Virus record (IMG/VR): IMGVR_UViG_3300025018_000093
Length of the DNA: 64,000 bases
Source of the DNA: a virus
Lineage: Duplodnaviria > Caudoviricetes
Reading direction: 5' to 3' (one strand)
Of this stretch, positions 1,080 through 49,334 are shown piece after piece. Made by a program: the position numbers and the translations under genes. How positions within the stretch are numbered: position 1 is the stretch's first letter; each line of letters begins with the position of its first letter. The notes beneath the pieces are model-generated. The model was not told where the DNA came from and did no database searches. It was given only the letters and a program-made list of their open reading frames with translations.

Positions 1080-2141
1080 ATGGCCGTCAAGTATACCTAT
1101 TCGATTCAGAGCGATTTTCCTCAGCACGCTGTCTCCCCGGATCGGCTGTTGAAGGAGGTGCGGGACAGTGCTGTGACAATCGCGCTGGACTACATAAACT
1201 CCGACGCGACCTCCTGTGATCTGTGGTTTAAGGCGGACCTTCCGACAGCAGACAAGAGCCTGCTCGACTCCCTGGTTGCGGCACACTCAGGAGAGCCGTT
1301 GCCGGACGAAGCACTGGCCGTGGTGCTGCCGGGTACTCAGGAACTCGACCACGCGACACTCGTGTCCCTGTCCCCTAGACAAGGAACAGAGGTTGTCCGG
1401 GCGACGCATAATCTCTGCGATGCCACGACGTGGTGGGAGGGGTCGACTCGTGTAGAATCCGAGGTGTTGACGGACTCGGGGGACGGGCTCCGCTGGGTGT
1501 CTCAGCATCCTGTGTGGATTGATTTGGACCATGGGAAGATATACGAGGAAGAGCAGATTGTTGAAGAGTACCGCCCCGTCATATCGGTCGACGGAGTCGA
1601 GGCAACGGACTACGTTATTGACTACCAGACGGGTGACGTGACGTTTGCGACGTCGAAAGCCGGGCAGATTGTGACCGCGACCTACAACTACGCGGTTACG
1701 TCGACGTGGACTCTTGTTCCCTACCCAGGGAAGATCCTATGCGTCGAGCAGGCGGAGATTCAGCTCAGCGCTGACATTCAGATGGACAGCCCGTTCGTGT
1801 TGGAGCTGCACGGGTACGTCGACGTTTTTGCGCCGGAAATGGCCGAGAGCAACGGAGGCCCGGTTCCGAACGGAACGAAGATCAAGCTCGGCGCGGCGGT
1901 GTACAAAACCGTGGCTCAGATTATTGACGAGGCCAAGGGCAGCTATCCTCCGATACCTCCTATTGGCGGGTCGATTGGCGGCACACAAAACACGTTCTAC
2001 GTGTTTCCGTTTGTCTACCTAGCTACCAAGGAGCTTAGGGCTTCATATGGCATGGAGTACCATGTCTACGTACTAGGTGACACAGTGTACGGCGGGGAGA
2101 GAGCTACGGCGACGTTCTATTGCGTGTGCCGAGACGAATAG
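1080..2141 (+). CDS. Putative virion structural protein (353 aa)
   Basis: Long ORF with SD (GGGAG), located between structural genes. Contains a DYQTGDVTF beta-strand motif seen in phage baseplate/fibre proteins. Confidence 0.55.
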   Translation: MAVKYTYSIQSDFPQHAVSPDRLLKEVRDSAVTIALDYINSDATSCDLWFKADLPTADKSLLDSLVAAHSGEPLPDEALAVVLPGTQELDHATLVSLSPRQGTEVVRATHNLCDATTWWEGSTRVESEVLTDSGDGLRWVSQHPVWIDLDHGKIYEEEQIVEEYRPVISVDGVEATDYVIDYQTGDVTFATSKAGQIVTATYNYAVTSTWTLVPYPGKILCVEQAEIQLSADIQMDSPFVLELHGYVDVFAPEMAESNGGPVPNGTKIKLGAAVYKTVAQIIDEAKGSYPPIPPIGGSIGGTQNTFYVFPFVYLATKELRASYGMEYHVYVLGDTVYGGERATATFYCVCRDE

Positions 2142-2152
2142 CGGAGGGAAGC

Positions 2153-3067
2153 ATGAGAGCACTTGTCTTGTCCGGTGGTGGTGTGAAGGGTGCTTATCAG
2201 GTGGGGGCAATCTCTCACTTGGTTGGGAGGCTGCGGCGGCACTATCCTATCGTGTGCGGCGTGTCTGTTGGGGCTATCAACGCGGCTCACCTAGCCCAGT
2301 ATGCTAACGGGTACGAGAGTGACGCATCCGACCAGCTGTTGAAGCTATGGCACTCCCTCACGACGGGCAAGGTGCACAAGCGCTGGTTTCCCTTCGGCCG
2401 GCTCCACGGGCTATGGAAGCCGTCGCTGTACAACAGTGCTCCATTGCGCGCGTTCCTGGAGCAGCATCTAAAGACAGATACTATCCTCGACTCAGGCAAG
2501 AAGCTACGCCTTGGTGCTGTGTCCCTCGACACCGGGGAGTACACGGCCTTCACTGAGGCTTGCGGAGACTTGGTCGGGGCAGTACTGGCTTCGGCATCGT
2601 TTCCGGGGATGCTGCTGCCTATCCATCTTGTCGGCACGTCGGCCACAGACCTATACACGGATGGAGGGGTGAAGAACGTCACTCCGCTGGCGGATGCTAT
2701 CAGGCTTGGGGCTACTCATATCGACGTCGTTCTAACTGCTCCGAAGGATAACCGGTACACGCGGCTGGCGAAGCCGAACGCTGTTGACGTGTTGATGCGC
2801 AGTGCCGAGCTAATGAGTGACGAGATCATCGAGAACGATCTGCGCGTGTGTCGTTCAGGGAATCGGAGAGCGGAGCTGGGGGAGATCGGCATGAGGCATA
2901 TCGAACTCACGGTCATACGGCCTGAGATCCCCTTATGCGAGGATTCGCTGCGGTTTGATCCTAAAGAAATCGCTGATATGATCGCTAAGGGCGAGGCGGA
3001 CGCCGCTACGGCTACGGGCGAGGTGGACGCCGCTACGGCTACGGACGCCGCTACGGCTACGGAATAG
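2153..3067 (+). CDS. Patatin-like phospholipase
   Basis: Start ATG 2153 after GGAGGG. Motifs: LVLSGGGVKG glycine-rich loop, GVSVG nucleophile elbow, ASASFPG, and catalytic DGG. Confidence 0.92.
   Translation: MRALVLSGGGVKGAYQVGAISHLVGRLRRHYPIVCGVSVGAINAAHLAQYANGYESDASDQLLKLWHSLTTGKVHKRWFPFGRLHGLWKPSLYNSAPLRAFLEQHLKTDTILDSGKKLRLGAVSLDTGEYTAFTEACGDLVGAVLASASFPGMLLPIHLVGTSATDLYTDGGVKNVTPLADAIRLGATHIDVVLTAPKDNRYTRLAKPNAVDVLMRSAELMSDEIIENDLRVCRSGNRRAELGEIGMRHIELTVIRPEIPLCEDSLRFDPKEIADMIAKGEADAATATGEVDAATATDAATATE
2989..3060 (+). repeat. Tandem repeat (27+27+18 bp) encoding DAATAT units at the patatin C-terminus
   Basis: ggacgccgctacggctac occurs three times. Confidence 0.9.
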
Positions 3068-6180: not shown

Positions 6181-7125
6181 TTGAATCCGAACCACATCCG
6201 GAAGGCTTGGCTCGCTGTGAATGTGCAGGATCCCTGGCACAACATTCGGGAAGCTTGCAAGCAAGCGCTTCTCCTGGAAGATCACCTCTTCCACCCAGCG
6301 AAGTATTGCGAAGATTGTATCAGCAAGCATCTCCTGATGATGGAAGCTCTCCTTGAGGAAGCCGTCACCCTGGACGTGTCAGGAAGCCTCCAGAAGCTCC
6401 TAGGAAGCCTTCTGACGCGCGTGCTGACCTACCAGGTACTTTGGGCCTCCGGTCGCGCGGACGCGCGTCAGCTTGCCCAGGCGTTGCGCAAATGGCGCAA
6501 GGGGATCTGCGCGCAGGTCCTCCGCCCTCGAACGGTACACACTTCGCGTGTGGCTTCTACAGAAGCTGCTCGAAACACTGCCCTGAACCTCATTGAAGAA
6601 TCTCCCGGGAAGTCGTTTGAAAGCCTGGCGAAGACGGTACGTCAGCACGCCCAGTACCTGCGGGACCCTGTTACTCGGCAACGTGTTGACGCGGAAGATG
6701 TGGTCGAGGAGTTGGCCAAGTTGATGGGTGAGGAAGAGGTCTCGGAGGAAGACAAGCTACCTGGGGGGTACATCACGGTCTATCACGCCACGGACAGGAG
6801 CACCGCGCAGGAGTTCCTGAAGCGAGGCGCTATCCCCGAAATGAAGCCCCGACCCCGAGTCCCGATGGAGTACGCTCCGGGGAGGGGTGTTGACGTGGGT
6901 CTTTACGTGGGTCACTCTGCGAAGGCAGTGGATTCCTACGGCCCTGTGGTGCTCTCTGTGGCTGTTCCAAAGAAGTGGCTGGAAGTGCCCACAGAACTGT
7001 CCCAGTTGGGCTACAAAGACCCACTGAGGGCTCTACACGAGCATGACGGGGCCATCATCAAGAAACGTATCCCAGCTTCGGCCTTCAAAGTCGTTTTGGG
7101 GAAAGTTGGAAGGAGTGCAGCATGA
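6181..7125 (+). CDS. Two-domain protein: CxxC-containing helical N-domain plus ADP-ribosyltransferase-like C-domain
   Basis: N-terminus HNIREACKQALLLEDHL...YCEDCISKH. C-terminus ITVYHAT...GRGVDVGLYVGHS...YGPVVLSVAVP resembles ART-fold strands. TTG start is uncertain. Confidence 0.55.
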   Translation: MNPNHIRKAWLAVNVQDPWHNIREACKQALLLEDHLFHPAKYCEDCISKHLLMMEALLEEAVTLDVSGSLQKLLGSLLTRVLTYQVLWASGRADARQLAQALRKWRKGICAQVLRPRTVHTSRVASTEAARNTALNLIEESPGKSFESLAKTVRQHAQYLRDPVTRQRVDAEDVVEELAKLMGEEEVSEEDKLPGGYITVYHATDRSTAQEFLKRGAIPEMKPRPRVPMEYAPGRGVDVGLYVGHSAKAVDSYGPVVLSVAVPKKWLEVPTELSQLGYKDPLRALHEHDGAIIKKRIPASAFKVVLGKVGRSAA

Positions 7126-7613
7126 GTCTGAAAGGAAGTATTATTCGCCTCGCGTACCAGCGCCCTGCTCTGCGGAAGCACCTGCTTCCGTTGGTCTCGG
7201 AGAAAACCGCTGCGGAAGAGGTTCCCCTGGATGTTCAGGATTTCTTGCTCCGCATAGAGCGCACGGTGAAGAGGTACTTTCCGAGGGGGCACTTCGGTAT
7301 CCGAGCTGCTAAGGGGTTGGCGAACAGCTACGACATCTACATGGTGACCGCGACGCTCCCCAAGGGAAAGCAGCCTAACGGAATCATGCAGAATGACCCA
7401 TCGTTCAACACCTTCTGGATGTTTGGAGCCTACACCCCAGAGAGGGGTATGAATCCAAAGATCAAAGTCGAGATGTCGCAGGGTGGGAAGCTCTACAGTC
7501 CGAATGCCTTCAAGGCACAAAAGATTGGGTGGCGGGACAAGACCGGCACACCCGCACAGATTATCGCCCACTTCGACCGCTACTATGCCACGCTCGCGTC
7601 CATGGTGGAGTGA
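7122..7613 (+). CDS. Hypothetical protein with N-terminal IRLAYQ motif (putative internal head protein)
   Basis: ATGA overlap with the upstream gene. Begins SLKGSIIRLAYQRPALRKHLLPLV. Confidence 0.75.
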   Translation: MSLKGSIIRLAYQRPALRKHLLPLVSEKTAAEEVPLDVQDFLLRIERTVKRYFPRGHFGIRAAKGLANSYDIYMVTATLPKGKQPNGIMQNDPSFNTFWMFGAYTPERGMNPKIKVEMSQGGKLYSPNAFKAQKIGWRDKTGTPAQIIAHFDRYYATLASMVE

Positions 7614-7628
7614 GGTGCGAGTTGTTAG

Positions 7629-7967
7629 ATGGCCAGTAAGTTTCATCCGGGAATTGAGATCCAACGTGCGGACATCCGCGTGTTTTTCACATACGATTGC
7701 GGGTCCCGGAGGAACGTTTGCGAGATCACCTATGCGCTTTACTATGTGGACCCCGGTCCACCAGAGGCAGAGGTTCTCATTGGGAGCCCACAGCGAACTC
7801 CTGTGAATCCCGAGGTGGGGGAGTATCACCCAGCGCTGTTCCTACCACTCAGTGCTGCTGTTGGATGGTACAGGCTCCGTTGGGTCTTTCGAAAGTCCCC
7901 AGAGTCCTTGCCTGAGCAAATTGTGATGCAGTTTCAAGTGGTGAGAAAGCTTCGGAGTCACGCATGA
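7629..7967 (+). CDS. Paralog of the N-extein domain of the downstream split gene (112 aa)
   Basis: Aligns end to end with aa 1-106 of the 7964 ORF (EITYALYYVDPGPPExEVLIG...QRTPVNPExGEY). Confidence 0.85.
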   Translation: MASKFHPGIEIQRADIRVFFTYDCGSRRNVCEITYALYYVDPGPPEAEVLIGSPQRTPVNPEVGEYHPALFLPLSAAVGWYRLRWVFRKSPESLPEQIVMQFQVVRKLRSHA

Positions 7968-8461
7968 CAATTCAATTCAATCCCGGAAGTGAGGTGCAAC
8001 GTGGGGATCTCTGCGCGTTCTTTCAGGATGCTTGTGGGTCCCGGACGAACATCTACGAGATCACCTATGCGCTCTACTACGTGGACCCCGGTCCCCCGGA
8101 GACAGAGGTTCTTATCGGGGCTGCACAGCGGACACCTGTGAATCCTGAGATGGGGGAGTACTACGCAGCACTGTACATCCCCCCGGACGCCATCGTGGGG
8201 AGCTATCGCATTCGGTGGACCTTCAAGGAAGCGAATGATGTTTCTCCTGCACAGGAGATCGTCATGGAGTTCCAGGTCGTGGCCAATGAGGCAACTCTGG
8301 GATGCCATTACAGTGCCTGCGTCCGGGAGCTGATGCGTCGGTTGCGCATTCACCTCCGAGATCAGTGTGTTGCTGGAGAGGAGTTGGTTGAAGTGATGGT
8401 CCACGGGGAGAAAATTGTGCTCCGAATGGACGAGCTTTGGGAGCTGACAAATGTCGAGTGA
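7964..8461 (+). CDS. N-half of a fractured head/neck structural gene: N-extein (aa 1-134) plus split-intein N-fragment
   Basis: Ends ...LRIHLRDQ|CVAGEELVEVMVHGEKIVLRMDELWEL-TNVE, an intein block A starting with Cys at 8366. Confidence 0.85.
   Translation: MTIQFNPGSEVQRGDLCAFFQDACGSRTNIYEITYALYYVDPGPPETEVLIGAAQRTPVNPEMGEYYAALYIPPDAIVGSYRIRWTFKEANDVSPAQEIVMEFQVVANEATLGCHYSACVRELMRRLRIHLRDQCVAGEELVEVMVHGEKIVLRMDELWELTNVE
8366..8458 (+). mobile_element. Split intein N-fragment (IntN, 31 aa)
   Basis: C1, then a block-A-like hydrophobic pattern and an 'IVLRMDELW' strand-helix typical of the intein N-terminus. Stop codon follows after 31 aa. Confidence 0.8.
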
Positions 8462-9356
8462 ACCACATTCTGTGTTGCTACCTTTGTTTGCGGAGCACGA
8501 TATCTCTTATGAAGTATTTCGTAAGAAGAGGAGACCTCCTCTGGGGATTCGGGAAAAAAGAGCTGCTATCGTGACCTGTCTACATCAACAGGGGTACTCG
8601 TGGTCTGAGATGATTTCAGTTACGGGCTTGTCTCAGGGGGCAATTCAAAGACTGACACAGGCCAAGGGTTGCGCCGCAGTACAGGAGAAGCTGAGGCTCC
8701 TGGGAACAGAGGTCGGGAAGTCCTGGAAAAGTCGCAAAAGACCAGGCCAACTTGAGCGGCAGTGGGAGACAGGGGTATTTGACCACCTTCGCGGACGTAA
8801 GCGTCCTGTCTGGGAGAGGGAGTGTTTGAAGGACTCTTGGACCCCAGAAAGAAGAGATGCCCAAGCTGTGCGTAGTTCTGAGACTGTATGGGGGGTCGAG
8901 GAAGTTCGAAATCGGATTCTGGCTTTCCACCGTTCTCCCGAAGAAAGGGCGCGGCGTTCTCGTCTTCAAACTCAGCGTATGCAAGAGAACCCTGTGAAGT
9001 ATCTTCGCGGGAAGGGTGGTTGGGTAGAAACTCCCAAGGGCGATAAAGATCAGGTTTTTGTGCGAAGTTCTTATGAGAGGGCGGCAATTTCTCTGCTAGA
9101 AGAGGACCCTCTGGTTATCAGTTACCAATTTGAGCCTCGATTTGTTCTTCTCAATGGTAAGTGGATACTTCCCGATTTCTTGGTACTTCCAAACCAGCCT
9201 CCCCACATACTCATCGAGGTGAAGGCTTCCTGGGTTTTGAAGCAAGCCCCCGATACAAAAGTACAACAGAGACTCCGTGCTGCTCAGAGCGTAGCTTCCG
9301 AAAGAGGCTGGAGCTTTGAGGTCTGGACGGAAGAGGAGTTGGCAGATGCTCTCTGA
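8451..9356 (+). CDS. Free-standing homing-endonuclease-like protein: HTH + TnsA N-terminal-like PD-(D/E)xK nuclease
   Basis: N-terminal HTH (GYSWSEMISVTGLSQGAIQRL). C-terminal RSSYERAA...YQFEP...PDFLV...LIEVK. Overlaps both flanking genes by 11 nt. Confidence 0.85.
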   Translation: MSSEPHSVLLPLFAEHDISYEVFRKKRRPPLGIREKRAAIVTCLHQQGYSWSEMISVTGLSQGAIQRLTQAKGCAAVQEKLRLLGTEVGKSWKSRKRPGQLERQWETGVFDHLRGRKRPVWERECLKDSWTPERRDAQAVRSSETVWGVEEVRNRILAFHRSPEERARRSRLQTQRMQENPVKYLRGKGGWVETPKGDKDQVFVRSSYERAAISLLEEDPLVISYQFEPRFVLLNGKWILPDFLVLPNQPPHILIEVKASWVLKQAPDTKVQQRLRAAQSVASERGWSFEVWTEEELADAL

Positions 9357-9741
9357 TGCGCAAAAAGAAAAGATCACTCGGGCCTTCCAGGAGAAGGCAT
9401 TGTGTGTAAGGTCTGTCTCTCCCGAGGGGCATTCCGAGTGGAAACGGGTTGTCCAGACGCATCGTGCTGAAGTGCCCTGGGAGGATATTTTTGAAGCAGA
9501 AACGGAGGGAGGGTCCTTTACTCTTACACGGGGACATCGTGTTTTCGTGACTCCTGTCGTAAAGGAGTCCATGGAGGACTTGAAAGAAGGTAGCACGGTT
9601 ACAGGTGTCCGAGAGGGAAAGGTAGTCGAGATTCCCCTTCGGGGTGTCAAGAGAGTGGCTTACCGCAGGTTCATGTATGATCTAACAGCGGAGGATTGGC
9701 ACAACTTTGTGCTGCATACCTCCGGTGTCCTGATCAGCAAC
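9346..9741 (+). mobile_element. Split intein C-fragment (IntC, 132 aa)
   Basis: TxxH block B, block F Asp, terminal Asn (9739-9741), +1 Ser. The penultimate residue is Ser rather than the usual His. Confidence 0.88.
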
Positions 9742-10239
9742 AGCCCCGACAAGTTCTATCACTTCCGGCCCCCAGAGCACGAGGGGCGCATCGGAAAGTT
9801 CAACAGGGTGTTTGGGCAAATCTGGGAGGACGAAGAGCTGCTGGTCTACCTCCAGACGGCGCTGACAGACTGGAATGCTAAGCCCCCGGAGACCGAGAGT
9901 CTTTGCACCTTGGATGCACTCTGCGCACACAAGCCTGTATGGACCGGCTACATCATGACGAGAGCTATGTTCTATGCTCTCTATGCCCTGGCAATCAACT
10001 GGGTCGCTGACGAGTTCGATTACAGTATCGGTGGAATCTCCCTCAATATTGACAAGTCGTCGAAGTATGAGCAGATGAAACAGAATGCTAAGGCCGAGTG
10101 GGACTCTCACGTCGAGACCAAGTTGCAAACCACCAAGCTCGTGCGTGGTCTGCAGCAACCGCGATTCGGTATCGGCATACGCAGCGCGTTCGGCCCACAT
10201 GTAGGCCGGGGTGTTTTGAGCCCCCGATCCTTCCTCTGA
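9346..10239 (+). CDS. C-half of the fractured gene: split-intein C-fragment (aa 1-132) plus C-extein (SPDKFYHFRPP...)
   Basis: ATG 9346 after GAGGAG. Intein block B TLTRGHRVF, block F MYDLTAEDWHNFV, block G LISN|S. Confidence 0.9.
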   Translation: MLSDAQKEKITRAFQEKALCVRSVSPEGHSEWKRVVQTHRAEVPWEDIFEAETEGGSFTLTRGHRVFVTPVVKESMEDLKEGSTVTGVREGKVVEIPLRGVKRVAYRRFMYDLTAEDWHNFVLHTSGVLISNSPDKFYHFRPPEHEGRIGKFNRVFGQIWEDEELLVYLQTALTDWNAKPPETESLCTLDALCAHKPVWTGYIMTRAMFYALYALAINWVADEFDYSIGGISLNIDKSSKYEQMKQNAKAEWDSHVETKLQTTKLVRGLQQPRFGIGIRSAFGPHVGRGVLSPRSFL

Positions 10240-10278
10240 GCAATTTTTTCTAAGTAATTACAATCACTTACGTTTTTC

Positions 10279-10307
10279 TGGACACGTCCTCAGACTTTTG
10301 CTACCTT
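10279..10307 (+). promoter_or_regulatory. Sigma70-like promoter candidate TGGACA-N17-TACCTT
   Basis: 17-bp spacing, in AT-rich intergenic DNA upstream of ORF 10337. Confidence 0.4.
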
Positions 10308-10336
10308 GATTCAGGTGGCAGTCGATGGAGGACCAC

Positions 10337-10480
10337 ATGCCAGTCAAATGCCCGTACTGCGGAAAAGAGTTTCAAGGTGACAAGCTCAACGCACGTCACT
10401 TGTCGAAGTGCAACCCTGAGCTGCAAGCAACCGTGCCCCCGTGCCTCTGCGGGCACGAGTCTACGTCATTGGGGTGTTAA
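10337..10480 (+). pseudogene. Short zinc-finger ORF (47 aa), probably a truncated endonuclease N-terminus
   Basis: SD GGAGG. MPVKCPYCGKEF...RHLSKC...CLCGH, then an early stop. Confidence 0.55.
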
Positions 10481-10654
10481 CGCGTTTTCGATTTCGTCTA
10501 CACAACGTAGTAGATTGGTTTGTACCTGCGTCTCTGAGAAGCGAAGTACTTGGAACCCTCTTTGTTCTAGGTGCTTTGTTTGCTTCTGGTCTTTTTCCAA
10601 TTGCTTTGGAAAACGGGAGCTATGCCAGTAGTCGCCATCCGCAATCTTCTGCTT
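10466..10654 (-). pseudogene. Vsr/DUF559-type endonuclease C-terminal fragment on the reverse strand
   Basis: My translation: KQKIADGDYWHSSRFPKQLEKDQKQTKHLEQRGFQVLRFSETQVQTNLLRCVDEIENALTPQ*. No ATG in frame before an upstream stop. Confidence 0.75.
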
Positions 10655-10699
10655 TGCAGAGCTTTTTTGTTCTGCTGTCTGAGCAAGCGGGGGAATGCT

Positions 10700-12181
10700 A
10701 TGACGTTACTTCGAGACCTGGTACGGTTAGCGTACAAGCATGCGCACCTGCGCCCTGCTTTGCTTCCCCTCCTGAGGGAGGCGGCCTCTGCGGATTCCTG
10801 GAATGAGGACAAGCACGGCAACAAGTGGAGAGAAGTGAGTGGTCGTGTGGAGTATGAGTTCGAGCCGGATGTACCTCCGAGCAGACGAACCTGGCCTCCT
10901 CGACAAGATCACATCAAGACTGCCGAGCTGGCAATGCTGCGGAACGGTTACAAGACCGACAAGTCCGACCTACTTCAAGTTGTGGAAGGTGAGAAGCTTG
11001 TGCGGTATTGCGTGCAAGTCCCTGCATTTCTCCCACCGAACAAGTCCGGTGTGAGCCGTATAGCACCCGTCAAGGTGCAACTGGACTTGCGAGGCCTGGT
11101 TGTGGACAAGAGGCCCTCGGATTGTGTACCCCTTCCGAGTCTTGTCGCCCGGTATGCCAGATTCATACACCAGGGTAGAAAAACAGTTCGACGTGACACC
11201 CTGAAAGGGTACTTCAAGTCTGGGTTCTATGTTCGATTTGGAGCATGGTCCGGCCCGTCTACGTTTGGACTTGTGACGAACAATGAGGATTACGACGAGT
11301 GGAGTGAGCTGGGGAAACGTCATGAGATGGGTGTGTCCGTTTACGGCGTGCGGCGGATACGAGGTCGTTGGGTACTGGAGGACATAGATCGTAGTCAAGC
11401 GGTCTATGGTGTTGGAGACTACTGGGAGCACATGCTTGGCAGTGTACTGCGGAACCGACCGCTCTATCTCGTTCGTGGTGTTCCCATTGCAATCGAAGAC
11501 TCCCAGAATCCTGACAAGCCCTACTTGGCTAAGGGATCCGACGGGGAGCCCCTGTTGGAGCTGGATTCCGTGCACAAGGTCCAACAACTGAACCCCTATG
11601 AGGTCTTCGTCATTGACACGAAATCGGAGTCTGGCGTGAACGTTGGGAATGAACTCTCTATAGGCGATGCTAGTTGGCAAGGACGGATTGTTTCGCAGCC
11701 AGCTGGAGAGACGGCAATGAATCGGAATGCAACGGGGCGCTTAGCCGGAAACGGGGTTTCTATTTGGTTTGGGGACTCCTTTATCGGGTCTCCAAAAGCT
11801 TTTGGCCAACGCGGATACCCAACGTTGCGGGAAGCTGTGTCCGCAGCAAAGGCGGCAGTGGGTAAGCTACCCTCCCCTCTAGTGGCGGAAGATCCTGGAT
11901 TCCTCCCACCGGGATCTGTAGGTAAGCCACTGGCATCAAGTTGGAAACTTGGTGAGGCTGTGAATGCGGGTATTGTTTTGCACTACCCCCAGCCAGGCGG
12001 GAAGAGCCTGTACATGGCTGCGAGTAACTACCTGGTGAAACGAAAGCATCGACCTGCGGATAGCTTATCCATGAAGCCTCTGCCGAAACAGAAGGGGACT
12101 TTGCGGCCTTTGCATGCAAGTGTGATTCGACTTGCCTACCAACACCCAGAGCTGCGAAAGCATCTTCTTCCGCTACTGTGA
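10700..12181 (+). CDS. Hypothetical multi-domain protein with the IRLAY motif at both termini
   Basis: ATG 10700. N-terminus LVRLAYKHAHLRPALLPLL; C-terminus SVIRLAYQHPELRKHLLPLL*. Confidence 0.8.
   Translation: MTLLRDLVRLAYKHAHLRPALLPLLREAASADSWNEDKHGNKWREVSGRVEYEFEPDVPPSRRTWPPRQDHIKTAELAMLRNGYKTDKSDLLQVVEGEKLVRYCVQVPAFLPPNKSGVSRIAPVKVQLDLRGLVVDKRPSDCVPLPSLVARYARFIHQGRKTVRRDTLKGYFKSGFYVRFGAWSGPSTFGLVTNNEDYDEWSELGKRHEMGVSVYGVRRIRGRWVLEDIDRSQAVYGVGDYWEHMLGSVLRNRPLYLVRGVPIAIEDSQNPDKPYLAKGSDGEPLLELDSVHKVQQLNPYEVFVIDTKSESGVNVGNELSIGDASWQGRIVSQPAGETAMNRNATGRLAGNGVSIWFGDSFIGSPKAFGQRGYPTLREAVSAAKAAVGKLPSPLVAEDPGFLPPGSVGKPLASSWKLGEAVNAGIVLHYPQPGGKSLYMAASNYLVKRKHRPADSLSMKPLPKQKGTLRPLHASVIRLAYQHPELRKHLLPLL
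12115..12154 (+). repeat. 40-bp DNA copy of the motif-coding segment (partner at 12361-12400)
   Basis: tgcaagtgtgattcgacttgcctaccaac(a/g)cccagagctg, 39/40 identical. Confidence 0.9.
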
Positions 12182-23873: not shown

Positions 23874-25991
23874 ATGACAACGAAGCCAGAGAAGGCTCCC
23901 AGCCTGGGAGTAGGACTTGACATTGGAACAATGAACATCGTTTCCGCACGACGTACCCCACAGGGTGTGCGGACGCAGAGCATCCGAGATGCGTTCCTCG
24001 ACCTCGACCCGGATGCTCGTCGCATGTTGAAGATGAGCCAGGTCAAGTTCATTGAGCGAGATGATGATGTTCTGGTGTTGGGGGATGATGCCCTCCAGAT
24101 GGCAGCGATGTTCGACAAGGAAGCGCGCCGCCCCTTGTCAGCAGGGCTCATCTCATCATCCGAGGTGGACTCTCTGGAGATTCTGGGGATCTTGATTCGC
24201 AGTGTGCTGGGAGAACCGCAAGAGAAGGAAGAGGTGTGCTACTTCTCCGTGCCGGCTGCCCCCGTCGACATCCAGCGGGATGTCATCTATCACCGCAAAG
24301 CTTTCGAGCGCATTGTAGAGGAGTGTGGCTATCAGGCATACCCCTCCAACGAAGCAATGGCGATTGTCTACGCGGAAGCTGCCAAGGATGGCTTCAGCGG
24401 GGTTGGAATTTCTTACGGTTGTCTGACACCAGACTCCACAGTGATTTCCAGAGAGGGCTTGAAGCCCATTGCGGGGGTACAAGAGGGAGAAGAGGTGCTC
24501 TCTAAGGATGGGGCTTTTCACCGAGTTCTTAAAACATGGGTGCGAGATTACCAGGGACCCGTGTATGACATTTCTTTCTACGGAAATCCGCAGGGAGTGT
24601 CTTTGACAGGGAATCACCAGGTCTGGGTGCAAACGGAAAAGGGATGGTCTTGGATGACTGCAGACCGCTTGCAGCGGGGGGACATCATAGGAGAGCCTGT
24701 GGTCGCTGGTCACGGTCGTCGGGTATGCTTAGCTATTCAAGACAAAGATCGTAACTCTAAGGCAAAGAAGAAAGTTCTGGAATGGTCCTCTTCGCTGGGG
24801 AGGTTCCTGGGGTACTTCTTAGCGGATGGGCATCTCTCTAGGAGTGATGTGAATCGAAAAGGTCGTTACAGTATCTGGGTTGACTTTGGTCCCTCAGAGC
24901 AAGCGTATGTGGAGGACTTGAAGGGATTGGTAGAACGTTTGTTCCAGCGTTCTGTTTCTGTTTCTCCGCATGGCAATGATTTTCGTTGTCAGTTTAGTCA
25001 CAGTGGTCTACATACGTGGCTGTCTGCGAATTGCTATCGTGAGGGTGCGAAGTTCTTTCCGCTTCACATTGAGGACTTGAAGCCTAACGTGGTCGAGGGC
25101 CTTATCGTAGGTCTTGTTCGAGGAGATGGACGGGCTTCTAATTCCGAAGTGCATTTTGGCAATTCCAGTCTTTCCTTGGTGACTGCGTTTCATCTTTTGA
25201 TTGGTAGGTTGGGTCTTACAAGTACTCTTTCCAGGAGAAATCCAAGGGGAGCTGCGCTTGCGGACGGGCGTGTCATTCAAGGAAAAAAGGAAGAATGGAC
25301 TGCGCATGTTACAGGGTGGGATGGCTCCTATCTTCAACAACTTGTGAATGCTGGAAGTCCAGAAAGAAGAGTTCGTGTCTGGAAAGAGGGTGGGTTTCGT
25401 TGTACCTGCGTCCGTGATGTCTCCGTGAGAGATTATGCGGGGCCGGTGCATGATCTCACTGTGGAAGATGAGCATTCTTTTGTGACTCCTTACATGACGC
25501 TTCACAATTCGGGGATGACGAATGTGGCGCTGTCTGTCAAAGCGATGCCTGTCTTGGAGTTCAGCGTCAGTCGCGGGGGTGATTGGATCGATAAAGGTGC
25601 CTCCCAGAGTGTAGGGACGACGCAGTCTCGCATGTGCACGATCAAGGAGAAGGGTGTGGACTTGATGGACCACACGAAGGGAGATCCCAAGCAACTGCGA
25701 GAGCGGGAGGCTCTTTCCTTCTACTATCAGGACTTGATTGACTACTCTTTGCGGAAGATCGCAGAGCAGTTTCTGTCCAACTGTCGGGTGGAGTTGCAAG
25801 AGCCCATCCCGATCATTGTCAGTGGTGGGACAAGCCTAGCCGGTGGATTCCTGGAGCTTTTCCAGAAGGTGTTCAAGAAGCATCAGCGTCGGTTCCCTAT
25901 TGAGATCAGTGAGATTCGACAGGCAAAAGACCCGCTTAGTGCGGTCTCGCACGGGCTTCTCGTACAGGCCATGCAGGAGTATGAGGGTTGA
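23874..25991 (+). CDS. Actin-fold (MreB/FtsA/ParM superfamily) ATPase precursor containing an intein
   Basis: Phosphate-1 GLDIGTMN, connect-1 NEAMAIV, phosphate-2 GISYG|SGMTNV split by the intein, adenosine IIVSGGTS, connect-2 DPLSAVSHG. Confidence 0.85.
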   Translation: MTTKPEKAPSLGVGLDIGTMNIVSARRTPQGVRTQSIRDAFLDLDPDARRMLKMSQVKFIERDDDVLVLGDDALQMAAMFDKEARRPLSAGLISSSEVDSLEILGILIRSVLGEPQEKEEVCYFSVPAAPVDIQRDVIYHRKAFERIVEECGYQAYPSNEAMAIVYAEAAKDGFSGVGISYGCLTPDSTVISREGLKPIAGVQEGEEVLSKDGAFHRVLKTWVRDYQGPVYDISFYGNPQGVSLTGNHQVWVQTEKGWSWMTADRLQRGDIIGEPVVAGHGRRVCLAIQDKDRNSKAKKKVLEWSSSLGRFLGYFLADGHLSRSDVNRKGRYSIWVDFGPSEQAYVEDLKGLVERLFQRSVSVSPHGNDFRCQFSHSGLHTWLSANCYREGAKFFPLHIEDLKPNVVEGLIVGLVRGDGRASNSEVHFGNSSLSLVTAFHLLIGRLGLTSTLSRRNPRGAALADGRVIQGKKEEWTAHVTGWDGSYLQQLVNAGSPERRVRVWKEGGFRCTCVRDVSVRDYAGPVHDLTVEDEHSFVTPYMTLHNSGMTNVALSVKAMPVLEFSVSRGGDWIDKGASQSVGTTQSRMCTIKEKGVDLMDHTKGDPKQLREREALSFYYQDLIDYSLRKIAEQFLSNCRVELQEPIPIIVSGGTSLAGGFLELFQKVFKKHQRRFPIEISEIRQAKDPLSAVSHGLLVQAMQEYEG
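24420..25508 (+). mobile_element. Contiguous intein (363 aa) with LAGLIDADG homing endonuclease
   Basis: Starts CLTPDSTV; block B LTGNHQVW; EN motifs FLGYFLADGH and LIVGLVRGDGR; ends VHDLTVEDEHSFVTPYMTLHN|S. Confidence 0.95.
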
Positions 25992-47414: not shown

Positions 47415-49334
47415 ATGTCGACAAAGCAATTCGAGAGAAGCACTGCGGATGTTCCTCTTTCACGTTCTCGACGTTTCGGAAACTCCTTTTCCGCCGACGT
47501 GTACGCGGACCTTCGTTTCAGTCCCCAGTATGATCGGACCTTTGAGGCTCAGGAGGGGCTTCCGATTGACGGGTCGAACAAGCTCTTGCGGCAGCTTTCT
47601 CCGTTCACTATCAGTCTGCTTCCTCCCCTTGCACTGAGCAATGTCCCAGAGCAGACGTCTCTGGTGGACTCGATTCGGCAGAAGCTTGATGTGCTGGCGT
47701 TGGACGCAACGAATGTGTTCAATCTGTTTCTCGATAGCATCGCGGTCCCTCAGGTGGGTACCGTGCAGGACACAGGGGTCATCGAGAATAGTGACCTGAC
47801 GCCGCATTTTACGTTCTCCGAGTTCCTGAAGAACCCGATTGAATCTGGCAGAGAAGAGGAAATCCTCGCCAACATTCGCACTCTCGCAGGGGAGTTGGAG
47901 AAGGCCAAGCTTGCTTTCGAAGCCATCCGGGGAGGACCTGTATCCATTCAAATCATCTCTGGGTATCGTTCCCCAGACTACAATGCCAAGATTAGTGGTG
48001 CACAGGACAGCTATCACATGCGGGGTATGGCTGCCGATATCATCGTTTCGGGGCTCTCCCCTGTAGAGATGGCAGCTACCCTGAATGAGTTGATGGATAG
48101 TGGGTCGATTCTCCAGGGAGGATTAGGGTACTATCCGGATCCCAGTGATGGTTTCGTACACTATGACGTGCGTGGAAACAGATCGCGGTGGCAGGATAAA
48201 GAGATCGATGAGGGTACCGAGATTAAGACCATTGCAGAGGCTATGGGGATGCTTCCCCAAGGCCCTTTGCCATCGGAACAAGCACGACTGTCCGAGGAGG
48301 CAGGGTACTCGTCACCCTTGCAGCGACGTACTGTCCCTGCAGCCCCACCCCCAAGCATCCCTCTGTTTGATGGGGCCACCTCGGTGAACACCTGGCAAGA
48401 GGCCAAGGATGGCGCTACAAGGGCGTCTCTGAACCTCATGGGATCGGATGTAGGCGGGTCTGGGAGTAATCGCACCAAGGCAGAGGTGTTCATTGCCGGG
48501 GGTCTTGCGCAGACGAATGAGCACGGTGCATTCCTTGAGCCGGGTATTGCAGACCGACTGGTGGCTGTGGACATTGCGTCGCAGCTCGATACCATCTTGA
48601 AGGTCCCACCGCTGACGCTTCTGATTAATCCTTCCACCTTCTCCTTGCAGTACACCCGAATCCACCAATTCAGTCAGCGCACCCGAAACGGATTTCTGTA
48701 CCAGGCCTGGGGGGAAGAGCAACCGACGCTGACCTTCTCTGGGACTATTGGAGCTTTCCTCGCTGGGGCGAATCCGGGGTCTACAGGTCCGACTACGTCC
48801 ACACCGACAGGTGTGCAGTTCGCGTCCAAGAGAAACTCCGCTGCGTATCAGAACCTGATGGCGCTACTCGGGTTCTACAAGCATGCGGGGTACATCTACG
48901 ATACGGTGTACAAGACCAACGCTCACCATATGGTTGGAGCCCTGGCTATCGAGTATGATCAGTGGGTGTACGTAGGGCACATGAACAGCTTCAACTGGGG
49001 CTACGACCAAGATTCTGTGCAAGGGAAGATTGCCTTTGACATCGAGTTCAAGGTGTCCCAGATGTTCGACAACCATATGCCAATCGAGAGTATCCCTCCG
49101 CTCCGGTCTATCACAGACAGCCTGAGTTCTCCTGGGAATGTCATTGGGGGTGTTGTTCCGTTGGTGAATACTACCTCGACAAGTCAGCTTTTTGAGGAAG
49201 AGACCACGAAAACGCTTACCGGGGACGCCTGGGCGGGAACGTCGGATGCTCGGGGTGGGGGTGGGGCGGAAGTTCCTACGGGGTCCGGGGGGTGGGAACG
49301 TACGTCCTTTGTGGGTGACTTGGCTAGCCCTTAG
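47415..49334 (+). CDS. Tube-initiator-like baseplate protein carrying a peptidase M15 (Zn D-Ala-D-Ala type) domain
   Basis: HFTFSEF...IISGYRSPDYNAKISGAQDSYHMRGMAADI...GLGYY...FVHYDVRG. The C-domain LLINPSTFSLQY...QRTRNG is paralogous to the 46631 gene. Confidence 0.8.
   Translation: MSTKQFERSTADVPLSRSRRFGNSFSADVYADLRFSPQYDRTFEAQEGLPIDGSNKLLRQLSPFTISLLPPLALSNVPEQTSLVDSIRQKLDVLALDATNVFNLFLDSIAVPQVGTVQDTGVIENSDLTPHFTFSEFLKNPIESGREEEILANIRTLAGELEKAKLAFEAIRGGPVSIQIISGYRSPDYNAKISGAQDSYHMRGMAADIIVSGLSPVEMAATLNELMDSGSILQGGLGYYPDPSDGFVHYDVRGNRSRWQDKEIDEGTEIKTIAEAMGMLPQGPLPSEQARLSEEAGYSSPLQRRTVPAAPPPSIPLFDGATSVNTWQEAKDGATRASLNLMGSDVGGSGSNRTKAEVFIAGGLAQTNEHGAFLEPGIADRLVAVDIASQLDTILKVPPLTLLINPSTFSLQYTRIHQFSQRTRNGFLYQAWGEEQPTLTFSGTIGAFLAGANPGSTGPTTSTPTGVQFASKRNSAAYQNLMALLGFYKHAGYIYDTVYKTNAHHMVGALAIEYDQWVYVGHMNSFNWGYDQDSVQGKIAFDIEFKVSQMFDNHMPIESIPPLRSITDSLSSPGNVIGGVVPLVNTTSTSQLFEEETTKTLTGDAWAGTSDARGGGGAEVPTGSGGWERTSFVGDLASP

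Follow-up and report, generated by a model that had tools for sequence, protein, structure and literature searches.

We analyzed a stretch of 64,000 nucleotides (nt) from a virus (Duplodnaviria; Caudoviricetes; IMG/VR virus record IMGVR_UViG_3300025018_000093), referred to here as the window, in which the gene for a probable virion neck protein is divided by a split intein and a nuclease gene. Three open reading frames (ORFs) lie head to tail on the plus strand, each in another frame (Table 1). ORF1 joins the N-terminal part of the host protein (the N-extein) to a short N-terminal intein fragment (IntN), ORF2 encodes a free-standing nuclease, and ORF3 begins with the complementary intein fragment (IntC) and continues into the remainder of the host protein (the C-extein). 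We read this locus as a fractured gene, that is, a phage adaptor gene with a trans-splicing split intein that was broken by a free-standing homing nuclease gene, and put the probability of this reading at roughly 85%. The arrangement itself is far beyond chance. The locus stretch is 100% identical in two further independent assemblies from different sources, and seven more diverged loci (L001, L002, L004-L007 and L009) share its layout; together with the window, these make up the eight loci compared here.

The C-terminal part of ORF1 reads ...RRLRIHLRDQ↓CVAGEELVEVMVHGEKIVLRMDELWELTNVE, where the arrow marks the junction of extein and intein; Cys1 of the intein is Cys135 of ORF1, and the IntN spans CVAGEELVEV...ELTNVE, 31 residues from this cysteine. 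The start of ORF3 is the ATG at 9346 (MLSDAQKEK...), where its homologues start as well; a TTG at 9316 opens the same frame but was rejected on this ground. Shine-Dalgarno (SD)-like motifs stand 6 nt 5′ of the nuclease ATG (GGGAG) and 7 nt 5′ of the ORF3 ATG (GAGGAG), no sigma-70-like promoter match was found in 7000-10700, and the terminator-like matches inside the three genes are only short stems of 6 pairs. The head-to-tail order, the three frames, the 11-nt overlaps and the internal SD-like sites suggest that the three genes are most likely co-transcribed and translationally coupled. A preliminary description of this DNA, made from its letters alone, had placed a 31-residue IntN with its first cysteine at 8366 in ORF1, a 132-residue IntC with blocks B, F and G and the ending LISN↓S in ORF3, and overlaps of exactly 11 nt between the nuclease gene and each half; all of these hold when coordinates and sequence are read again.

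Table 1. Features of the divided gene and its surroundings, in positions of the window
Feature	Position	Strand	Description
Ig-like N-domain paralogue	7629..7967	+	separate 112-residue gene, outside the intein cassette
ORF1	7964-8461	+	165 residues, 134-residue N-extein + 31-residue IntN
N-extein, adaptor gene	7964..8365	+	134 residues; Ig-like beta-sandwich and first adaptor-core helix; ends ...RIHLRDQ
IntN	8366..8461	+	31 codons + stop; Cys1 8366-8368; block A CVAGEELVEV
Overlap, IntN gene end and nuclease gene start	8451..8461	+	11 nt, ATGTCGAGTGA, read from sequence
ORF2, free-standing nuclease gene	8451..9356	+	301 residues
ORF2 predicted catalytic residues	E209 9075-9077; D242 9174-9176; E256 9216-9218; K258 9222-9224	+	
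Overlap, nuclease gene end and IntC gene start	9346..9356	+	11 nt, ATGCTCTCTGA, read from sequence
ORF3	9346-10239	+	132-residue IntC + 165-residue C-extein
IntC	9346..9741	+	132 residues; block B 9526-9537; Asn132 9739-9741
C-extein, adaptor core	9742..10239	+	165 residues + stop; Ser+1 at 9742; starts SPDKFYHFRPPEHEG...

The divided intein and the protein it interrupts

The IntC of ORF3 contains block B as T61-R-G-H64, block F as YDLTAEDWHNF and block G as GVLISN132, followed by S133, the Ser+1 of the C-extein. It matches the Pho RadA intein at an E value of 3e-4 (phmmer), while a profile built from 25 sequences of the IntC family retrieves 45 solved sequences, inteins almost without exception, with a best E value of 1.4e-10 and with KlbA, RadA, DnaX, CDC21, NrdJ-1 and DnaE among them. 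P0190, a relative in which the intein is contiguous, passes the cut-offs of both PF14890 (36.8 bits, cut-off 35.8) and TIGR01445 (25.0, cut-off 24.5), so that the intein assignment of the preliminary description is upheld at the level of profiles. Contiguous mini-inteins at the site of the window (P0190, P0135, P0168, P0125 and P0217) indicate where the break lies. The IntN aligns with their first ~31 residues, with 59% identity to P0190, and IntN and IntC together tile the contiguous mini-intein end to end, the break falling in a loop that in P0190 reads ...MEELWGIINNSS↓SQKLKVAFQKG... (here the arrow marks the position of the break). This asymmetry is kept over the eight loci, with an IntN of 30-39 residues and an IntC of 128-132. 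On these motifs and matches we class the element as a class-1 intein (Hint domain) that is split atypically and has a short IntN.

The residues to which the splicing chemistry is ascribed are strongly conserved. The nucleophile at intein position 1 is Cys in 8/8 loci; among the 36 relatives with an intein at the same site (site-mates), TxxH of block B is present in 34, the remaining two being truncated, the terminal Asn is present in all 36, and 22 have Ser and 14 have Cys at the +1 position. T61, H64 and N132 are invariant across the 25 IntC family members, and the catalytic residues are kept even though the identity of IntC among site-mates is only 33-54%. The penultimate residue is Ser131 rather than the common, though not obligatory, His, an ending (Ser-Asn) shared by 23 of the 36 site-mates. 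Contiguous inteins, for which splicing is indispensable, end in Ser-Asn too, and the missing His therefore reads as a trait of the lineage with no sign of decay, and its absence is not unusual among inteins.

A homologue search restricted to the C-extein found 1368 relatives, most of them ~298 residues long, and 268 were fetched for comparison. The closest, P0002, has 299 residues, the same number as the two exteins combined (134 + 165), carries no intein, and is 78% identical to the N-extein (residues 1-134) and 88% to the C-extein (131-299). Across the junction it reads ...RIHLRDQNPDKFYHFRPP... (RIHLRDQ↓NPDKFYHF), or ...RRLRIHLRDQNPDKFYHFRPPEHEG... in longer context, and the insertion is confirmed to be in frame against this uninterrupted protein, reading ...LRDQNPDKFYHF.... 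Trans-splicing had been expected to give a plausible continuous protein across RDQ/SPDK, and P0002 does read straight through. Uninterrupted forms account for 142 of the fetched relatives, whereas 24 have the IntC plus C-extein form of the window and nine carry a contiguous mini-intein (~155 residues, N-terminal region), of which six have it at the site of the window and three have it six residues downstream. The insertion point is the most conserved motif of the family, LRDQ↓[N/S]PDKFYHF, with R128, L131, D133 and P136 invariant, and within the adaptor core it follows the first helix.

The exteins and P0002 match no family in Pfam, PHROGs or NCBIfam. The AlphaFold 2 (AF2) model of P0002, with a predicted local distance difference test (pLDDT) score of 85, consists of an immunoglobulin (Ig)/MG2-like beta-sandwich (residues 1-105), a helix (118-131) and a helical domain with a hairpin. 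With an exhaustive aligner, residues 117-281 match adaptor or neck chains of about 12 phages, including Pa223, T4 gp13, KHP30, GP4, A4, SU10, B2, Moo19, phage 812, DEV and PhiM1, at Z scores of 7.7-10.2 and root-mean-square deviations (rmsd) of 2.8-4.4 Å over 98-134 aligned residues. The adaptor fold emerged only with this aligner; Foldseek against the PDB, given the whole model, found only the Ig-like domain. Among the ESM-Atlas shape neighbors of the model is the Phage_connect_1/HCP cluster, the jumbo Tunturiibacter phage Tunturi_5 encodes a full-length homologue of 27% identity that is annotated as a head-tail connector, and gp165 of Bacillus phage G matches the adaptor core. Judged by its modeled fold, the host protein is probably the head-to-tail adaptor (neck) protein of a huge uncultured tailed phage, in line with the head or neck gene proposed at the outset. 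The gene preceding ORF1, which overlaps it by ATGA, encodes a paralogue of the Ig-like domain alone (63% identity to P0002 residues 1-108), and in one relative, P0182 (411 residues), both Ig-like N-domains are fused in tandem. No second intact adaptor copy was found in the 64-kb window, the N-domain paralogue being the only related gene.

The nuclease gene and the recurrence of the cassette

In ORF2, an N-terminal helix-turn-helix (HTH)-like domain (residues ~6-72) is connected by helical linkers to a TnsA-N-like PD-(D/E)xK catalytic domain (~184-301). Residues 217-294 match Pfam PF08722 (Tn7_TnsA-like_N) at 31.2 bits (cut-off 26.5), and the AF2 model (pLDDT 91) superimposes on TnsA (1t0f_A) with a Z score of 12.3 and an rmsd of 2.1 Å over 109 residues, against 7.6 for the next-best fold, 6.4 for Vsr and 6.2 for I-Bth0305I in the same exhaustive alignment; Foldseek likewise finds TnsA (E 9e-5). 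The HTH-like head resembles domain IV of DnaA, a DNA-binding HTH (residues 6-72, Z 6.5). Homologues number 72, at 38-58% identity, and E209, D242 (of PDF), E256 and K258 (of EVK) are invariant in the 44 that were aligned. The active site is of the form E...PDF...IEVK and not the EDxHD of the Vsr type, and no Vsr or DUF559 Pfam match appears at E values up to 1. Both the HTH and the TnsA-like nature of the nuclease, as well as its free-standing position between the halves, had been part of the preliminary description and stand up to these comparisons. Other resources place the protein less closely: NCBIfam TnsA_like gives 25 bits, below its cut-off of 110, PADLOC has no match for it, and a PHROG match to phrog_218 ("head closure") was set aside as probably a mislabel arising from this gene neighborhood. 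A nuclease-lyase fusion among the relatives, P0284, was also set aside, as it looks like a chimeric assembly.

ORF2 most likely acts as a homing endonuclease. Its HTH-like head would bind DNA and its TnsA-like PD-(D/E)xK domain would cut, the targets being intein-less or contiguous-intein alleles of co-infecting phages, into which repair would copy the cassette. An alternative is that the middle gene has another function, either as a domesticated nuclease (in phage exclusion or recombination) or as a Tn7-like remnant that landed in the intein. It can point to the fact that the closest fold and hidden Markov models are those of TnsA, a transposase subunit, and to a more distant homologue of the catalytic domain that stands free beside a large structural-looking gene in Xanthomonas phage phiXF1. 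On the other side, ORF2 ends with its catalytic domain and so lacks the C-terminal domain of TnsA, and no TnsB or other Tn7 gene lies nearby, the neighbors being the two adaptor halves; a Tn7-type element was therefore rejected. Moreover, the nuclease homologues whose context was read (L002, L004, L005, L006, L007 and LR745208.1) sit, six out of six, between the same gene halves, at exactly this site and in the same intein, and the known fractured genes (Dassa et al., 2009; PMC2677866) have a matching layout, the 3′ overlap included. The patchy distribution of the intein on the extein tree, described below, also fits a mobile cassette. We consider a non-homing role unlikely. The phiXF1 protein (phiXF1_158, locus L008) is a hypothetical protein of 232 residues, with 31% identity over residues 154-297, and stands between a structural-looking gene of 472 residues and the next gene. 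Free-standing homing endonucleases are often placed in this way.

At least seven further contigs have the three-gene layout, one of which (L009) is GenBank LR745208.1, a 485-kb uncultured huge phage in which it is unannotated; L001 has an equal layout with a middle ORF of the same size. The nuclease gene overlaps the IntC gene in all eight loci, by 1-91 nt, while the junction on the IntN side varies between a gap of 220 nt and an overlap of 17 nt. In a C-extein tree of 154 rows, with sampling biased towards top hits, the presence of the intein needs 18 changes, compared with a mean of 19.1 for shuffled labels, and at least eight changes are forced by well-supported branches; the sister of the window is the intein-free P0002, with 95% support. 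This scatter, close to random, agrees with a cassette that is often gained and lost, as homing would lead one to expect. The tree of the IntC (41 rows) is too poorly resolved to separate one splitting event from several, and synonymous sites are saturated, because the nearest intein-bearing relative is only ~50-64% identical.

Two further intein sites were found in the adaptor family, each with contiguous and split forms. The first, ...PDRNY↓[S/T]F.PP, lies six residues downstream of that in the window and is occupied in P0145, P0152, P0184, P0201, P0213, P0227, P0236, P0241 and P0254, whose inteins form a clade of their own with 99% support. The second lies in the C-extein, at ADEF↓[S]YSIGG. 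In L005 (1979-5796) and L007 (1789-5510) both the window's site and this one are occupied, and the adaptor gene lies in three pieces: the N-extein with a first IntN, the TnsA-like nuclease gene, the first IntC with a middle extein and a second IntN, a stretch that differs between the two loci, and the second IntC with the C-extein. The second intein is likewise atypically split, at ADEF↓SYSIGG, with Ser1, Ser+1 and an IntN of about 33 residues. Between its halves L005 carries a gene for a DUF559/Vsr-like nuclease (PF04480, 28.8 bits, cut-off 20.6), and L007 a 900-nt stretch with no called gene. We lean slightly towards a general reading of these loci, in which the TnsA-like nucleases would be an unrecognized family of free-standing homing enzymes that made the atypically split adaptor inteins of huge phages by invading mini-inteins after ~30 residues, and in which the adaptor of L005 and L007 would require two orthogonal trans-splicing reactions to join its three polypeptides. 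As a separate observation in L009 (LR745208.1, 353091-359017), inspection by eye shows a PDF...E.TK-like motif in an ORF just upstream (825-1949) and a Vsr-like ...PDF...GDWWHG motif at the end of the conserved downstream DUF7487 gene; both may be further free-standing nucleases.

Predicted trans-splicing and the alternatives to it

Whether the two intein fragments would associate was addressed by complex prediction, using residues 118-165 of ORF1 and 1-150 of ORF3 along with three controls. The pair scored an ipSAE of 0.83, while the best of the three controls scored 0.00; contacts agreed between runs to at least 89%, and the pLDDT of the partners was at least 73. In calibration, 51 of 78 solved complexes attained the mark for this test, as did 2 of 108 mismatched pairs. 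The predicted interface brings residues 131-147 of ORF1, around Cys135, against residues 58-65, 130 and 132 of ORF3. The outcome favors the intein reading of the preliminary description. The pass may partly reflect likeness to split-intein complexes that have already been solved, and binding is not thereby proven.

In the proposed mechanism, a free-standing nuclease gene would have cut the adaptor-gene intein after about 31 residues. The IntN, carried on the N-extein, would dock into the nearly complete IntC and complete the Hint fold. Here, Cys1 would form a thioester, Ser+1 would attack this thioester, Asn132 would cyclize, and an O-to-N shift would yield the 299-residue adaptor ...RIHLRDQ-SPDKFYHF..., with the junction peptide ...LRDQSPDKFYHFRPPEHEGR. 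This chemistry is predicted because the catalytic residues are conserved. The fractured gene is real and probably functional, and virion assembly would then depend on trans-splicing.

Several points weigh against this reading. Both trans-splicing and DNA cleavage are predictions, made from sequences and models. Alone, the IntC of the window reaches only 17 bits on PF14890 (the Pfam family Intein_splicing, cut-off 35.8), and Ser in place of the penultimate His slows Asn cyclization in some inteins. The Z scores of the adaptor match (8-10) are middling for a helical domain, though about a dozen phage adaptors fill the list. Lastly, the search for another copy covered the window, and a second intact adaptor may exist elsewhere in the 261-kb genome.

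In a different view of the locus, the halves of the intein are inactive and the gene fission is simply tolerated: the fragments would act as no more than a non-covalent clamp, or the adaptor core would serve as one virion protein and the Ig-like N-piece as another. Besides the missing penultimate His, this view can draw on the N-domain being encoded also as a separate gene (7629-7967) and on gp165 of Bacillus phage G, a homologue of the adaptor core that has 179 residues and no N-domain. Yet all catalytic residues are kept over the eight loci and 36 site-mates despite the low identity of the IntC, the Ser-Asn ending is shared with contiguous inteins that have to splice for the adaptor to form, and the break in the protein falls after the first helix of the adaptor fold, away from the domain border. 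The short "C-domain only" homologues that might have represented natural gene fission proved, in those checked, to be artefacts of scaffold gaps or contig ends. We regard inactive halves as quite improbable. An assembly or sequencing artefact, in which two frameshift errors disrupted one contiguous intein whose endonuclease domain was in frame, would account for three ORFs in three frames with short overlaps. As far as sequence data can show, it is refuted: two other assemblies contain identical copies, three distinct ORFs, each with a start codon of its own, persist in eight diverged loci, the junctions vary between a gap of 220 nt and an overlap of 91 nt, and the N-terminus of the nuclease is conserved.

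Elsewhere in the window, the gene at 23874-25991 encodes a volactin-like actin homologue (PF25216, E 4e-71) that is broken by a full intein with a LAGLIDADG endonuclease domain, the second intein in the window. A patatin-like phospholipase (PF01734, E 7e-28) is encoded at 2120-3067 amid otherwise unannotatable phage genes, and a 639-residue protein with a peptidase M15 domain at 47415-49334, amid very large ORFs (1250-2426+ residues) that resemble tail or baseplate genes.

Significance and comparison with known systems

Were splicing to proceed as predicted, the protein that appears to depend on it would be one of the virion neck and not an enzyme of replication. The adaptor family would also offer dozens of diverged natural intein pairs with an IntN of 30-39 residues, the pairs of the second split site having Ser at both catalytic positions, and one gene with three sites, at which contiguous, split and empty alleles co-exist, forms a well-populated natural series in which the gene-breaking model for the origin of split inteins can be followed. 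A short IntN is rare among natural split inteins, and such inteins are in demand for protein semi-synthesis and labeling (PMC11766414, PMC10189870).

As for the individual parts, ORF2 shares with TnsA of Tn7 (PDB 1f1z, 1t0f) its catalytic fold, its E/D/K active-site arrangement and a match to PF08722 above the cut-off, but differs in lacking the C-terminal domain, the TnsB and TnsC partners and the transposon ends, in place of which it has an HTH-like DNA-binding region of about 180 residues. The window adaptor resembles phage head-to-tail adaptors, including the HK97 gp6-like Phage_connect_1 family, in the helical core and beta-hairpin of residues 117-281, and is unlike them in its extra N-terminal Ig/MG2-like domain and in matching no Pfam or PHROG family. 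The best-known split inteins of fractured genes, gp41-1, NrdJ-1 and IMPDH-1, have the usual break, with a long IntN and a short IntC, in contrast to the 31-residue IntN of the window. Short natural IntN fragments are known from AceL-TerL (25 residues), GOS-TerL (37 residues) and PolB16 OarG (15 residues), with Cat-TerL as a consensus (PMC11766414, PMC10189870). The window intein shares with these its short IntN, its nearly complete IntC, its phage or metagenome origin and, by prediction, class-1 chemistry; unlike them, it sits in an adaptor rather than in a terminase or PolB, and combines Cys1 and Ser+1 with a Ser-Asn ending. No TerL-type intein is among the 45 PDB matches of the IntC family profile at E values up to 1.

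The closest parallel for the locus as a whole is the set of fractured genes, mainly of phages, in which the halves of a split intein lie on two ORFs with a free-standing endonuclease between them (Dassa et al., 2009; PMC2677866). In 15 such loci the IntC gene and the 3′ end of the nuclease gene have 6-69 bp in common, the nucleases are GIY-YIG or Vsr-like (EDxHD, I-Bth0305I), and the hosts are DNA-metabolism enzymes and terminase (PMC2677866). The window locus agrees in its host gene halves flanking a same-strand nuclease ORF and in the 3′ overlap with the IntC gene, and the gene-breaking model of that work, in which a free-standing homing endonuclease gene invades an intein, can be applied to it. 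It departs from those genes in its nuclease, which is TnsA-N-like with an E...PD...ExK set, and in its host, a virion adaptor. A 2025 survey of intein-associated nucleases covers LAGLIDADG, HNH, GIY-YIG, Vsr-like and endonuclease VII-like enzymes and does not list a TnsA-like type (10.1101/2025.01.02.630785), which the present locus would add. The combination had been suspected at first to be undescribed, and no report of a split intein paired with TnsA or a TnsA-like homing endonuclease was found in the literature searched, whose coverage is incomplete and which makes this weak evidence of novelty; the missing penultimate His, also counted then as part of the combination, is instead a common trait of the lineage. 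In essence, the mechanism is already known (PMC2677866), while the nuclease family, the host protein and the atypically split intein lineage are new.

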